Source: Saccostrea cucullata (Eukaryota). From it: 64,000 nucleotides of DNA. Both the position numbers and the translations under genes were made by a program. This document shows, in pieces, positions 41,256 through 59,599 of the stretch. The first letter of the stretch is position 1, and every line of letters begins with the position of its first letter. The DNA lies in assembly GCF_032062105.1 (NCBI RefSeq), contig NW_026937312.1, positions 372,001-436,000 of the forward strand, in the 5' to 3' direction. Below the pieces are notes generated by a model that saw only the letters and a program-made list of their open reading frames with translations, was not told where the DNA came from and did not search any database.

Positions 41256-43346
41256 TCAGGAATGTTCATCCATATAGGATGCGTCATTTTCTTGTGCACC
41301 TATGTCGATTAAATCCAATTTATGTGGATGCGCCGTGTTTGTATAGCACTCGCTACAAATATCAAAATCAGGACAGGTATTACAGTGATACCTGAAATCA
41401 GTTATTGGATTATCACATTCATCACAAACAAATTCTTCTTCAAATTCGTCATAGAAATCATCTTCGTTGTCATCATCATCATTATCATAACCATCATCAG
41501 AGTGGTCAAATCTTCCAAAATCATCAAAACCCATTCTAAACAAAAGTTTGAGTTTTTCCAGGATATTGTAATCTTTAGAGAATCCATATTCCTTAAGGTT
41601 TTCTGTTTCCAGAATTTCTAAACTGGTTATCGCTTCTACCACATTTCCCCAATTCATGCCAGTGTTTGCTAGGTTGGCAATGCCATCCAGAACCCCCGAT
41701 TTTGATGCAATGAGCAGTTGCTTAGGATCTGATCTACTACATATGTAGGCTCTGGTGATATTGTTCGCACGATAAACCAGCGATGATTGGATGTAGTTTG
41801 AAATCAGTTTCGTCATGTTTGTGTCGAATGAATGTCTGAGTTCTGATTCCAAGGCAGTCACGGTTTCACTGTCAATACAATGTTTTGTGCCATCCAAGTC
41901 TTCTTCCAATCCATAAACTGCTCTTTTAACCATTCCTTCAATAACGTATTTCAATGTTGATATGCATGTATTTCGAAGTCTTCTCCCTAAAGAAGTCCTA
42001 CATTTGTGTGGCGGAAGGTAAAGCAAAGAATCATTCTCTATCCAGACCACTTTTGATTGAAGTATGGCAGTTTGAACCCTCATTCCAGCAAAGAAAAGCA
42101 AAGACTGATCAATATCTTTAAACAAGTTGTTGTTAGGAAGAATATAATGTGGACAGATCTGTGAGAACAGATTGCACTGTAATCTCTGAAGAAGCCCTAT
42201 AACTCTTGTAACCATTAATTGCTCTGTCCAGTCTCTCACAGGGACCTGCTCGCATTCCCACAGGAATACGATTTTCAGATGGTATGATTGCAGTGCCTTA
42301 CCGATTGGTGGGCAAAGAAATTGTCTCCAGATTGCTTTAAATAGCAGGTAACACATCCTCTGTGTTTCTGTAAGACTAAGCATTAGTTCTCGTTCAATCA
42401 AACAGAAGGATAGTCTCCATTCAAGGAAAGTTTTGGAATCTTTGGGGTATTTTGGTACGATGAGGCAACCCATGGAAATAAGTTGTTCTACAAAATTTGA
42501 AGAAGGAAACCCTGAAATTCTTTTCCTGTTTTGGAACTCGTTTGCTACAGAAGGCCAAGTTGAACAAATTATAGCTGGCGAACAATCGTATTGCAATGAA
42601 ATATCACTTTCAGTAATCAATAAAGTTGTTTTGACCGCAGGCCCTTCCTGGTTAACTATGTAAAATACAAAGGGATCCGAACTCTTGTCCACTTTTTCCT
42701 CTTCATCAGATTCATCAGTTTCCATTTTAGCATCTACGAGTTTGTCCGAGTTCTTGCAGTAGCCTGAATACTGAAAGTTTTCTACACTACATCTTAGACA
42801 AAGCATCATAAAGAACTCGTCTGTGAAGGCCTCTGGAGACAGATAAAACTCGTTAATGGATCCGTCTTCACTGGACACAATGTTACAAAGTCCACACCAG
42901 TTCTCGCTTTCATCTTTCAGATGAACTTTCAGTTGAACGAACCCTGGATTCTCCTTGCAGAATTCGATCTCTAACCACGTCTTGTCAGCGTTTGGTTGCT
43001 TTGATTCTATGGCAGTAATAGTCCTCAAAATGGCGGTGAGGTCAAGTTCTTCATTCTTATTGCCCTCGGAAACTTCACTAATGGAGAGTCCTTCACTCGT
43101 GCTTCCTATGAATTCCAAGTCTAATTTAGAAAAACAAGGATGAACTTGCACCTGAAATGGAAGATCATAAAACATCCATCCTTCTGGGGTTGTCACAGCC
43201 TTTCTTATTCGCTCTTTCAGATTCTTGAATTCTGCTGGTGGAACTGCGAGCTCCCTTAATTTTCTTAAAAGTTCATCATTTACCCTTGAATTAGTTGTTT
43301 TCTGAAAGTATTTTGTGGTTGCTGCACTACAGTATCGGATATCCAT
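41256..43346 (-). CDS. cGAS-like receptor / Mab-21 family nucleotidyltransferase with a C-terminal ZZ-type zinc finger, 696 aa, single coding exon
   Basis: FIGS(81-82)..EG...E100-L-D102, GPA, D254 (YDCSPAI), WP, LIVPK, EWRLSF..E, SYHLK...LW..E, CPHY..P..NLF give the Mab-21 fold. After an acidic tract, CDEC...RYHCNTCPDFDICSEC...HPH is a ZZ finger (41322-41426). A splice acceptor lies 7 nt upstream of the ATG. Confidence 0.92.
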   Translation of the reverse strand: MDIRYCSAATTKYFQKTTNSRVNDELLRKLRELAVPPAEFKNLKERIRKAVTTPEGWMFYDLPFQVQVHPCFSKLDLEFIGSTSEGLSISEVSEGNKNEELDLTAILRTITAIESKQPNADKTWLEIEFCKENPGFVQLKVHLKDESENWCGLCNIVSSEDGSINEFYLSPEAFTDEFFMMLCLRCSVENFQYSGYCKNSDKLVDAKMETDESDEEEKVDKSSDPFVFYIVNQEGPAVKTTLLITESDISLQYDCSPAIICSTWPSVANEFQNRKRISGFPSSNFVEQLISMGCLIVPKYPKDSKTFLEWRLSFCLIERELMLSLTETQRMCYLLFKAIWRQFLCPPIGKALQSYHLKIVFLWECEQVPVRDWTEQLMVTRVIGLLQRLQCNLFSQICPHYILPNNNLFKDIDQSLLFFAGMRVQTAILQSKVVWIENDSLLYLPPHKCRTSLGRRLRNTCISTLKYVIEGMVKRAVYGLEEDLDGTKHCIDSETVTALESELRHSFDTNMTKLISNYIQSSLVYRANNITRAYICSRSDPKQLLIASKSGVLDGIANLANTGMNWGNVVEAITSLEILETENLKEYGFSKDYNILEKLKLLFRMGFDDFGRFDHSDDGYDNDDDDNEDDFYDEFEEEFVCDECDNPITDFRYHCNTCPDFDICSECYTNTAHPHKLDLIDIGAQENDASYMDEHS

Positions 43347-44439
43347 TTCTAACCTGTGTAACAGTTAAAAAAGAAACAAGTTTGTTGATCTATTTTCGCT
43401 TTCACGTAATGTAAATTTCAAAATACATTGTAGATGTGTCTAATCTATTGAGTAAAAATATTCCTTTGTCTCTTTTAATTTAAAAAATATAGATTTTATT
43501 CTATCCATCCATTTAGCAGGTATGAATATTAATTACCATAACAATTACCTTCCTATGGTAGCGTAATACAAATCCGGACTGTTACCATTAGGTCAGTACA
43601 TAGATATGCTCAGAGTTATTCCTCTTTTCAATAGTTTTTAGAGTGCATATCATCTGAATTGAACTGAATAATGTGGATCCTGAAAATGTATACTTCTATA
43701 TAGGGAAGATTATCAAATATTTAAGAAATTTATGGTGGGATTATGTATAAAAAAATGATCGAATCAAAAAACTTTGCTTTGCATATATAGGAAAACATTA
43801 CCAAACATATAGCATTTTATGCTTATTAATTTCAAATTTCATAAAACTCCTGGAAAATCGTTGAATTTCTGAAAAAGATATTTTTCATTTTATGTATCGA
43901 TTTTTTTTACGTTAATACTTTGTAGTCCTAGTACTCCATGGGGCAGCCTGCGGAAGTATTGTAAAAAAAAAAATTAAAACATTTAATTCTTTACTTGTTT
44001 AAGATACTAAGTATTCTTTATATTGCCTTTATTGGTCTTGGACTGTAAAGTTTACTTATTTCTTGTTGAGCGGATTTGTTGACATGTTAATGTTAACATG
44101 ACATATTCATCAGATATCGACGTGTTAAAGAATTTCTGAGACAAATAATGTGACAATTTCGTTAATAAAATAAGCTTTTTGGAGAGCACTATGAAGTAGC
44201 TGGTTGCATAAGGGTCTGTATTTTATAAGTTAAAAATGAAGGAAATTTTAAACAAGATTCGGTAAAGCAAACTTACGCAAGAAATACTCTACTCTAAAAT
44301 GTAAACTTATAAATATTCCAAAATCAAAACAGAAAATCTTTTTTTCTGTTTTAAGCATTTTGCCCTTAGGTATTGACAAAACTCAACAAATAACACAGTT
44401 TACAAGATTTTATTGGTGTGAATATCAAAAGTTTAATGA

Positions 44440-44850
44440 ACGAAAGCCATCGTTCACATAGCTAGATTTTACGGAGTAAATTTCCTCCCAAAACTATCAC
44501 TGAAACAGGTTTCACTACCACATTACAATTTGAAAAAGGCAAAAATCTACAGGGTAAATTTCCTCTCAAAAATGACACTGATACAGTTAACATACAGTAG
44601 TCAATTCAAAAGCGACTTGATATAACAAGATTTCACGGAGTAAATTTCCTCCGAAAGAATATCACTGATACAGTATTCATTACAACAATTACAATTTAGA
44701 AATAGCAAAAATCTACAGTGTAAATTTCCTCTCTAAATTCACATTGGTGCATTGTACATTCAGTATTTCAAAGCCAAAGCAACCATTGTTTACATAGCTA
44801 GATTTTACGGAGTAAATTTCCTCCCAAAGAGGAATCACGGAAACAGTATT
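44440..44850. repeat. Degenerate 80-90 bp tandem repeat (core GTAAATTTCCTC x5) forming the 3' flank of HEAT copy 1
   Basis: Core motif at 44476, 44554, 44640, 44720 and 44812; alternating unit types give a higher-order period of about 165-170 bp. Confidence 0.7.
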
Positions 44851-44860
44851 GTTGTTATCC

Positions 44861-58495: not shown

Positions 58496-58704
58496 CTGCG
58501 AAATCACAATATTTCGTTGGGGTTTAATTTTCGTGGTTTTCGTGGTGTGAAGAGACCCACGAATTCATGTCCAACACGAAATGTAAAATGTGACATACAT
58601 TACTACTCAACAATTCTACAACAACAAAATCAAATCCCCACGAACCAAGAGTTTTTTCTTCAAACCACGAAAATTTGACACCACGAAAATATGTGATTTT
58701 ACAG
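58496..58704. mobile_element. 209-bp Tc1/mariner-type MITE with a TA TSD
   Basis: TA|CTGCGAAATCACA.TATTTCGT ... ACGAAAATATGTGATTTTACAG|TA. Empty site TAGTAATA|ATTCAGCC in the paralog at about 49051. Confidence 0.88.
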
Positions 58705-59080
58705 TAATTCAGCCAAGTCTTTCCATCGTCTCGTAAAATAAATTAAAATTGCGATATAAATGGTCTTTTATTATAACAAGTTGTAAAAAATAATATACAT
58801 GTATTTAAAAAATAACAGACATACAACATTCATGAAAAGTAAACCCGTGTACATGCAGTCCTGATCACATAAAGTTCTAATTGAAATTATAGCAAACTTT
58901 TAACATTAAAAGTAAGTAAATTTAAAAGTAAGTTATCTACACAATTATATATGACTCTTTCTTCGGAGTAGGTGTAAAAATTCACGGTACAATATTTTCC
59001 ATTTCTTGCCATTGTCCATCTCGCTTGATGCAAACCCTACTTTAAACAATCATTTCTGACGCCTTGTCGCTTGCTATCCT

Positions 59081-59275
59081 CACCGTATGTTCCACTTGCC
59101 GGATTTCCAGTAGTGTCCCAGGACCTTATGGGCTGTCCGCCGGATCACAGTATGTTCCACTTGCCGGATTTCCAGTAGTGTCCCAGGACCTTATGGGCTG
59201 TCCGCCGGATCACAGTATGTTCCACTTGCCGGATTTCCAGTAGTGACCCAGGACCTTATGAGCTGTCCGCCGGAT
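59081..59275 (-). repeat. 65-bp tandem triplication of the last 21 codons plus stop of HEAT copy 3
   Basis: Units at 59081-59145, 59146-59210 and 59211-59275. Confidence 0.92.
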
Positions 59276-59599
59276 CTGGGCGTCGCTGTCCCTGTTAAAC
59301 AGTTCCAGGGACTCGGCTACCTGTGTCTCCAGGTGAGCCGGGGATCCGTCACAGAGAGTGTGGAGCACCTGTCTCCTGACCTGGGGGTCAGCATCGTCTA
59401 CCATCTCCAGCACCCGCGCCCAAAAGTCACTCAAGTCCTTTTTAACCCTGCAGGGACACATTTCTACCAGAGCTGTCCTCCTTACACGTGCATTTTCGTG
59501 TTTTGTTAGTTCGATTATGACGTCAATATCGGTAGTTTCTTTGCATAATCGCACAGCAGTGTTGACTGGAAGTTCACTCGGAGGCGGCCTGTTTTCCAT
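59210..59599 (-). CDS. Small HEAT-repeat protein, copy 3 (129 aa from the ATG at 59599)
   Basis: Differs from copy 1 at 3 amino acids. The 171-aa track ORF starts at an upstream TTG that is not supported by the paralogs. Confidence 0.87.
   Translation of the reverse strand: MENRPPPSELPVNTAVRLCKETTDIDVIIELTKHENARVRRTALVEMCPCRVKKDLSDFWARVLEMVDDADPQVRRQVLHTLCDGSPAHLETQVAESLELFNRDSDAQIRRTAHKVLGHYWKSGKWNIL

Follow-up and report, generated by a model that had tools for sequence, protein, structure and literature searches.

The locus analyzed here raises the question of whether a cGAS-like receptor and the small HEAT-repeat genes beside it form a functional module or are independent neighbors. The window, a 64,000-nucleotide stretch of Saccostrea cucullata DNA, carries an intact gene for a receptor with a ZZ finger (cGLR-ZZ) and, upstream on the same strand, three intact genes (H1-H3) for 129-aa HEAT proteins. 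This confirms the arrangement reported in a preliminary description of the locus. The nearest HEAT gene is 1,515 bases away, measured from the stop codon of H1 to the cGLR ATG. The receptor gene is organized as follows.

41256..43346, minus strand: cGLR-ZZ coding exon, 696 aa, intact ORF (43346-41256)
cGLR-ZZ residues 229-322: Mab-21 domain, above the Pfam cut-off
cGLR-ZZ residues 350-417: Mab-21_C domain, above the Pfam cut-off
cGLR-ZZ residues 637-676: ZZ domain, above the Pfam cut-off
43354..43548, minus strand: GT-AG intron in the cGLR 5' UTR, with GT and AG read from the sequence; the joint 43352/43549 is supported by one read and one contig (related species)
43549..43638, minus strand: first (non-coding) exon of the cGLR gene, from a spliced record, 5' boundary provisional

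cGLR-ZZ consists of a nucleotidyltransferase core (G81-S82, E100, D102, D254), a helical bundle, an extra helical region, an acidic linker, and a p62-like ZZ finger. Its Pfam scores were 41.5 bits for PF03281 and 51.7 bits for PF20266 (cut-offs 24.1). The GS motif and the three catalytic acids are kept: G81, S82, E100, D102, and D254 are invariant in 15/15 orthologs, and D254, the third acid (assigned by position), aligns with an Asp of Sp-cGLR1. The literal cGLR pattern, h[QT]GS X8-20 [DE]h[DE]h X50-90 h[DE]h, was unmatched in 9/9 proteins compared, which place Ile before GS and have a last gap of 146-161. A curated cGLR list nevertheless takes in the Crassostrea virginica ortholog, which shows the same departures (PMC9980059). 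Foldseek matched the predicted structure (pLDDT 75) to MB21D2 (E 1.7e-13), Sp-cGLR1 (2.8e-13), and cGAS (1.5e-10). Human MB21D2 (7lt1) and Stylophora Sp-cGLR1 (8gjy) were the best matches by both sequence and fold; unlike them, cGLR-ZZ separates its second catalytic acid from its third by ~150 residues and carries both a ZZ finger and ~200 aa of additional helical sequence. We predict that cGLR-ZZ is able to catalyze nucleotidyl transfer.

The gene is a conserved, single-copy bivalve ortholog found bivalve-wide, and every named ortholog comes from a bivalve. The C. virginica protein XP_022291417.1 (LOC111102821), the ortholog in the cluster of P0062 (63% identity), is in the cGLR list of Table S1 and is annotated ZZ_NBR1_like in Table S2 (PMC9980059). 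It was sample 11 of the biochemical screen and has no 'active' note in Table S3 (PMC9980059). The main text of that paper does not mention 'ZZ-type', and discussion of neighboring genes was not found in it (PMC9980059). The window's cGLR-ZZ lacks the C-terminal Cys-x-x-x end typical of the XP_022291417.1 cluster.

What cGLR-ZZ senses is suggested by its charge and its ZZ finger. Nucleic-acid-sensing cGLRs have a pI above 8.5, and for acidic cGLRs a ligand other than nucleic acid has been proposed (PMC9980059). cGLR-ZZ does not share the high pI of the nucleic-acid sensors; the whole protein has a pI of 4.7, and residues 15-440 one of 4.9. This acidity is common to cGLR-ZZ proteins (pI 4.7-4.9 full length and 4.9-5.5 for residues 15-440, 7/7 computed). 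Among PDB entries, the ZZ finger matched p62/SQSTM1 best (E 2e-10). All eight zinc ligands are invariant in 15/15 orthologs, and the pocket aspartates are conserved (D642 in 15/15, D660 in 15/15, D662 in 14/15) with the spacing of D2709/D2728/D2730 in the HERC2 ZZ domain. Unlike in p62/SQSTM1 and HERC2, the finger here forms part of a cGLR, where it may bind N-degrons. Because the receptor is acidic and retains an intact p62-like pocket, it is likely activated by a non-nucleic-acid, possibly peptide, ligand.

The three HEAT genes and an associated partial duplication are listed below.

44861..45250, minus strand: H1, 129 aa, single coding exon, intact ORF; promoter-like sites TATAAAAG at 45349 and an Inr-like TTAGT at ~45322
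49422..49811, minus strand: H2, 129 aa; TATA at 49910, AATAAA at 49117
59210..59599, minus strand: H3, 129 aa, the most diverged copy; TATA at 59701, AATAAA at 58772
59080..59211, minus strand: the final ~65 bases of the HEAT coding sequence repeated twice more, head to tail, past the H3 stop

H1-H3 are the sole copies of this family in the genome. H1 and HEAT copy P0001 passed both Pfam HEAT and HEAT_2, with protein scores of 29.7 bits for PF02985 (cut-off 23.5) and 28.1 for PF13646 (27.7). The model is all-helical (pLDDT 91), and the protein is near neutral (pI 6.2-7.0, net charge 0 to -2). Its best structural alignment was to Scc2 (Z 12.1, rmsd 3.7, 121 aligned), tied with other generic solenoids; fold searches returned generic solenoids alone, none with E<=0.001. 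The copies diverge by 11-20 nucleotides in 387 and carry different insertions, which rules out an assembly artifact as their source. A TATA/Inr-like site is present at each copy and AATAAA lies downstream of each. We also considered an intron that would end at the AG preceding the HEAT ATG; a gene of one exon, with a TATA/Inr-like promoter, appears to fit the sequence better. Purifying selection acts on H1-H3 (dN/dS 0.047-0.081).

The preliminary description had also noted homology between DNA 5' of the cGLR gene and parts of the HEAT units. This holds at 72-75% identity, with E values (1e-24 to 1e-61) that exceed chance. Positions 43714-44090 match 46998-47335 and 56532-56891, and 44104-44315 match 48317-48547 and 57652-57885. 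We call this shared DNA spacer X. Two further inverted copies, overlooked in the preliminary description, lie at 45675-45848 and 50237-50411, and an inverted piece stands 350-600 bases before the ATG of H1 and of H2. The spacer and the repeats around it are arranged as follows.

43714..44315, no strand assigned: spacer X, locus-specific, upstream of the cGLR first exon
44315..44850, no strand assigned: terminal ~540 bases of a young dispersed repeat, beginning 10 bases past the H1 stop
45601..46627, plus strand: foldback arm upstream of H1, made up of an inverted partial X and an older dispersed repeat
46998..48680, no strand assigned: X copy after H2, interrupted by the older dispersed repeat at 47364-48244
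50478..55506, no strand assigned: 5-kb insertion upstream of H2, breaking up the inverted X arm there
56532..57955, no strand assigned: X copy after H3, containing the same older repeat as the copy after H2

The 5-kb insertion was recognized because 44852-45920 matches 49413-50478, after which 45920-47749 matches 55506-57262. Spacer X is confined to the locus: all own-genome matches (7/7, 5/5, and 3/3) fell within it, which rules out a common transposon as the origin of the shared 5' DNA. The own-genome search can detect dispersed copies, since two neighboring pieces proved to be genome-wide repeats; dispersed repeats make up only pieces inside or beside X. The young repeat, whose ends were mapped from three copies, is 93-96% identical to 39 other full-length places (40 scored candidates) and elsewhere exceeds 3.4 kb with internal tandem units. 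The sole AATAAA downstream of H1 (44414) sits inside it.

These comparisons bear out the earlier claim that the two genes have linked histories. Spacer X would represent ancestral HEAT-to-cGLR intergenic DNA, and because the duplicated units carry this spacer, the adjacency predates the duplication. H2 is a mosaic, with upstream and coding sequence resembling H1 and downstream sequence resembling H3. It sides with H1 against H3 at 13 codon sites, up to codon 103, and its upstream DNA is 96% like that of H1. The X copy that follows H2 resembles the copy following H3 (92%) more than the copy following H1 (75%). H1 and H3 are separated by a dS of ~0.2. We infer that an old tandem duplication first copied HEAT and the downstream spacer; with the break falling shortly before the first cGLR exon, the receptor would have stayed uncopied. 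H3 would then have mispaired with H1, and a likely unequal crossover near the stop codon produced H2. The young repeat probably replaced the 3' flank of H1 afterward. The likely reason for keeping the extra copies is dosage, the HEAT protein presumably having a function of its own as a small helical scaffold.

We compared this linkage with that in other bivalves, and conserved synteny, a check that the preliminary description had proposed, failed in both clams examined. Adjacency seems to be oyster-wide. The longest contigs of Crassostrea/Magallana HEAT and cGLR-ZZ variants agree in length (8675 and 8722 bases; also 8607 vs 8608), and in C. virginica both genes are on one 64,991,568-base record. 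In clams the genes are on different records: the records carrying HEAT and cGLR-ZZ measure 88,078,429 and 120,499,105 bases, respectively, in Mercenaria and 329,255 and 102,249 bases in Ruditapes, with separation judged by record sizes in two species, one assembly each assumed. The presence of the genes on different clam scaffolds or chromosomes makes it likely that the pairing reflects ordinary neighborhood plus local duplication.

The HEAT family itself ranges far more widely than cGLR-ZZ. Searches returned 564 matches and, at E<=1e-10, 291 clusters, with named carriers among gastropods, annelids, a nemertean, rotifers, a flatworm, and protists, as well as bacteria-like contigs. Its members, such as C. 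virginica LOC111104616 and Aplysia LOC101846602, are small HEAT proteins; the oyster protein is 61-88% identical to those of molluscs and shares the invariant CPCxV, HxxCDGxP, and C-terminal N, but here there are three tandem copies. Duplicates do occur elsewhere: Haliotis rubra has two LOC ids and Rotaria sordida five clusters. In longer members the N terminus is extended, and the extension gives a weak PWI_ABCF3 lead. A general cellular role is suggested by the invariant C-P-C and C-terminal KWNIL-type motifs and by the occurrence of the family in protists. With a cGLR-ZZ profile, 53/53 HEAT loci retrieved (306 kb; mostly short, few molluscan) gave no match under E 0.2, and no NTase family appeared in 46 hand-picked ORFs from 14 metagenome HEAT loci. 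No bacterial HEAT-plus-CD-NTase operon turned up in a GTDB scan, which confirmed 0/4 pattern matches, and a viral scan gave one weak partial HEAT match. In the literature searched, nothing was found for LOC105332805, six other gene ids, or an oyster cGLR with a HEAT repeat; no publication dealt with this gene pair, nor was a function described for the 129-aa family.

Bacterial CBASS CD-NTases act with ancillary genes such as Cap2/Cap3 or HORMA/Trip13, and the preliminary description had drawn this analogy. The likeness is that a small gene adjoins a cGAS-fold enzyme on the same strand. The analogy fails because the cGLR starts from a separate, spliced first exon and each HEAT copy has a TATA/Inr-like site to itself, so that these are probably separate eukaryotic transcription units; moreover, no domain is shared, the linkage is not maintained across bivalves, and co-location, expected of such a module wherever both genes occur, is common to oysters only. 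We therefore favor, with a probability of roughly 0.8, the reading that HEAT and cGLR-ZZ are independent neighbors and that three HEAT copies arose by tandem duplication and later unequal crossover. At least 64 Mab-21 places exist in the genome and HEAT adjoins one; since some gene must flank each, its position is unremarkable. The adjacency is apparently stable across oysters, a counterpoint to independence.

The proposal that HEAT is a dosage-amplified regulator, sensor, or partner of the receptor found no positive support. A dedicated activator, inhibitor, or adaptor whose amplification tunes signaling would fit the adjacency kept by oysters, the selection on every HEAT copy, an acidic cGLR of the kind proposed to need another ligand (PMC9980059), and a C. 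virginica ortholog lacking an 'active' note in Table S3. Acidity makes a protein ligand plausible, but near-neutral HEAT is not the basic ligand proposed. The separate clam records, a family far beyond bivalves with no cGLR adjoining, and amplification of HEAT alone (three copies vs one cGLR-ZZ) also make such a partnership very improbable. Complex prediction for cGLR-ZZ and H1 (two runs, alignments not used) scored 0.00 and gave no answer either way. Co-regulation of non-binding oyster genes through shared upstream DNA or read-through, for example as stress-response neighbors, strikes us as rather unlikely. The inverted X piece before H1 and H2, derived from cGLR upstream DNA, could confer shared regulation, and the genes share a strand. 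Recurrent 8.1-8.7-kb Crassostrea/Magallana contigs hold one or both proteins, and a joint transcript is possible if the ~8.7-kb contigs are RNA, but they could be DNA. The separate cGLR first exon, the TATA/Inr-like and AATAAA sites of each HEAT copy, and zero reads on 43736-43940 across four runs (related species, low depth, 85% threshold) argue against it. A motif scan of 43380-60400 with strict consensus sequences detected neither an ISRE nor a kB site. Least probable of all is that the extra copies are neutral passengers or decaying duplicates moved by repeat activity. The region is repeat-rich and the H1 3' flank was replaced, but private changes are mostly silent (four silent and one replacement each in H1 and H2, P=0.02 each; 12 and two in H3) and promoter-like motifs are retained in all three.

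A combined reading would make cGLR-ZZ a protein-sensing receptor for exposed or arginylated N-termini, bound by its p62-like ZZ pocket, with oyster HEAT recruited as a cofactor, co-transcribed on a long Crassostrea RNA, and dosage-amplified here. We consider it slightly less probable even than a dedicated partner; if true, it would mean that an ancillary gene is linked to a cGLR in an animal. The half of it that makes bivalve cGLR-ZZ a peptide-gated cGLR is doubtful but distinctly more credible. The linkage is real but ordinary, and tandem duplication beside an already catalogued cGLR ortholog has little importance by itself. Strong conservation between protists and molluscs characterizes the 129-aa HEAT family, which occurs on bacteria-like contigs too. 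The acidic cGLR-ZZ is a better lead than the HEAT pairing: its intact active site and N-degron-type pocket offer a concrete ligand class for what acidic cGLRs sense.

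We found three intact 129-aa HEAT genes (H1-H3) upstream of a cGAS-like receptor gene with a ZZ finger (cGLR-ZZ), all on the same strand. This confirms the arrangement reported in the preliminary description.

43346-41256, minus strand: cGLR-ZZ ORF, 696 aa, with Mab-21, Mab-21_C and ZZ domains
43549-43638, minus strand: cGLR-ZZ 5' UTR exon; one read and one contig from a related species show it joined by splicing to the coding exon
45250-44861, minus strand: HEAT gene H1, intact ORF, 129 aa
49811-49422, minus strand: HEAT gene H2, intact ORF, 129 aa
59599-59210, minus strand: HEAT gene H3, intact ORF, 129 aa

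The top named matches were from Saccostrea echinata for cGLR-ZZ (81%) and Crassostrea virginica for the HEAT gene (84%), identifying the window as oyster DNA. All five HEAT matches in the own-genome search were H1-H3 and two fragments behind H3, with no further copies outside the locus. The genome contains one full-length cGLR-ZZ (64 scored Mab-21 matches, 1041 candidates), and related-species RNA gives its ORF thin coverage, with 65 reads in one raw-read run and 70 in another. Every HEAT copy has TATAAAAG 99-102 bases before the ATG, a TTAGT site 72 bases before it and one AATAAA downstream. We take TTAGT to be an Inr-like site. The predicted leader of all three copies contains a start-stop, ATG-TAG (45311-45306 and equivalents). 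Elsewhere in the window, plus-strand exons at 10443-12575 presumably belong to a sestrin gene, judging by their translations. A low-complexity open frame of 1753 codons with internal repeats occupies 30432-35693 (plus), and a single-exon rhodopsin-family GPCR (61380-62468, plus; 363 aa, PF00001) is divergent from H3 in orientation.

The DNA between H1 and cGLR-ZZ (X, 43714-44315) matches places behind H2 and H3 at 72-75% and also matches, in inverted orientation, two places upstream of H1 and H2. Own-genome searches with X gave matches only at this locus, whereas 47850-48250 drew 957 candidates, with ~80% matches across many contigs, and 44340-44850 matched many contigs at 93-96%. X is therefore local spacer DNA, with two repeats in its copies or beside it.

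47364-48244: older repeat, inserted into copies of X
44315-44850 exactly: young repeat end, in place of H1's 3' flank (ends from three copies compared)

The 5-kb insertion upstream of H2 carries a fragment (53310-53807, minus) that we take to resemble a LINE reverse-transcriptase region. Three short MITE-like insertions with terminal inverted repeats surround H3 (57955-58165, 58495-58700 and 59820-60145).

Synonymous divergence (dS) was 0.18-0.22 between H1 and H3 and 0.09-0.11 between H1 and H2. H2 is H1-like upstream (96%) and in its coding sequence, but the X copy behind it is 92% like H3's copy versus 75% like H1's. Unequal crossover leaves such a pattern, and H2 likely formed in this way from two tandem HEAT copies. 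The first duplication would have comprised HEAT plus spacer, and its edge would fall ~75 bases before the outermost base mapped for the cGLR-ZZ first exon. The linked histories proposed for HEAT and cGLR-ZZ are thus true, yet they imply no more than adjacency of the two genes before the duplication. A dN/dS of 0.05-0.08 and mostly silent private changes indicate that all three HEAT copies are constrained.

We judged linkage from record lengths in cluster listings, in which 15 of 31 HEAT and 15 of 169 cGLR members were listed for Crassostrea/Magallana. Among the members listed, lengths of 8675 and 8722 bases were common to both, and both C. virginica genes lie on the same 64,991,568-base record, which makes it likely that the two genes stay less than 9 kb apart in oysters. 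Contigs of 8.1-8.7 kb, either RNA or DNA, recur for both proteins in several Crassostrea/Magallana clusters. Assuming one assembly per species, the genes occupy separate records in Mercenaria (88.1 and 120.5 Mb) and Ruditapes (329 and 102 kb). The HEAT family extends to gastropods, annelids, a nemertean, rotifers, a flatworm and protists, and to contigs where the adjoining genes are of bacterial type (an ABC transporter with DUF1854, or aspartate kinase, for instance). A cGLR-ZZ profile matched none of 53 fetched HEAT-family loci, many of them short, under E 0.2; the named cGLR-ZZ orthologues are all bivalve. Together, the oyster linkage, the clam separation and these distributions fit microsynteny among oysters rather than a co-inherited module, and the candidate innate-immune module put forward earlier is unsupported. 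The pair did not turn up in the papers searched. We put the probability that ordinary linkage and duplication explain it at about 0.78. We consider a HEAT protein dedicated to cGLR-ZZ as its partner very improbable. Nothing marks the HEAT protein as a putative peptide ligand of cGLR-ZZ, since it is near neutral and begins with Met-Glu.

The HEAT model is all-helical with high confidence (pLDDT 91), and a fold search returned generic solenoids only. Invariant residues include C48-P49-C50, H80, C83-D84-G85 and N127. Many distant members are 200-257 aa long with an N-terminal extension; for the one longer member that was tested, the result was a weak PWI_ABCF3 lead (score 0.80). This tilts the case towards a general function in the cell, as a lead only. 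Longer members P0245-P0297 have an N-terminal helical domain. On three high-GC, bacteria-like contigs (L047, L052, L054) the homologue directly follows DUF1854, preceded in two by an ABC transporter. On two AT-rich contigs (L039, L046) homologues adjoin zf-C2H2/HNH, DUF5755, DUF5846 and zf-MYND genes, presumably typical of giant viruses.

The predicted cGLR-ZZ fold resembles MB21D2, Sp-cGLR1 and cGAS, and G81-S82, E100, D102 and D254 are kept in 15/15 orthologues. The literal cGLR motif regex was not matched (Ile precedes GS, and a long insert is present); nevertheless, the C. virginica orthologue XP_022291417.1 stands in the cGLR list of Li et al., annotated ZZ_NBR1-like (PMC9980059). It is sample 11 of their screen, with an empty note cell, and is not labelled among the 15 enzymes studied. 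The survey gives a pI >8.5 for DNA and RNA sensors and suggests that acidic cGLRs have ligands other than nucleic acids (PMC9980059). The computed pI of the window protein is 4.7. The closest match to its ZZ finger is that of p62, and three Asp kept in it are spaced as in the HERC2 Nt-Arg pocket (PMC9001736). Given the acidic pI and this p62-like finger with HERC2-spaced Asp, it is a fair hypothesis that cGLR-ZZ may be peptide-gated. Seven of 15 orthologues (P0059-P0065) end in Cys-x-x-x (CNQS, CKQS, CKQC, CNTQ), which we take to resemble a prenylation signal; the window and S. echinata proteins have other ends. The main value of the locus lies in an acidic cGLR-ZZ and an undescribed HEAT family.
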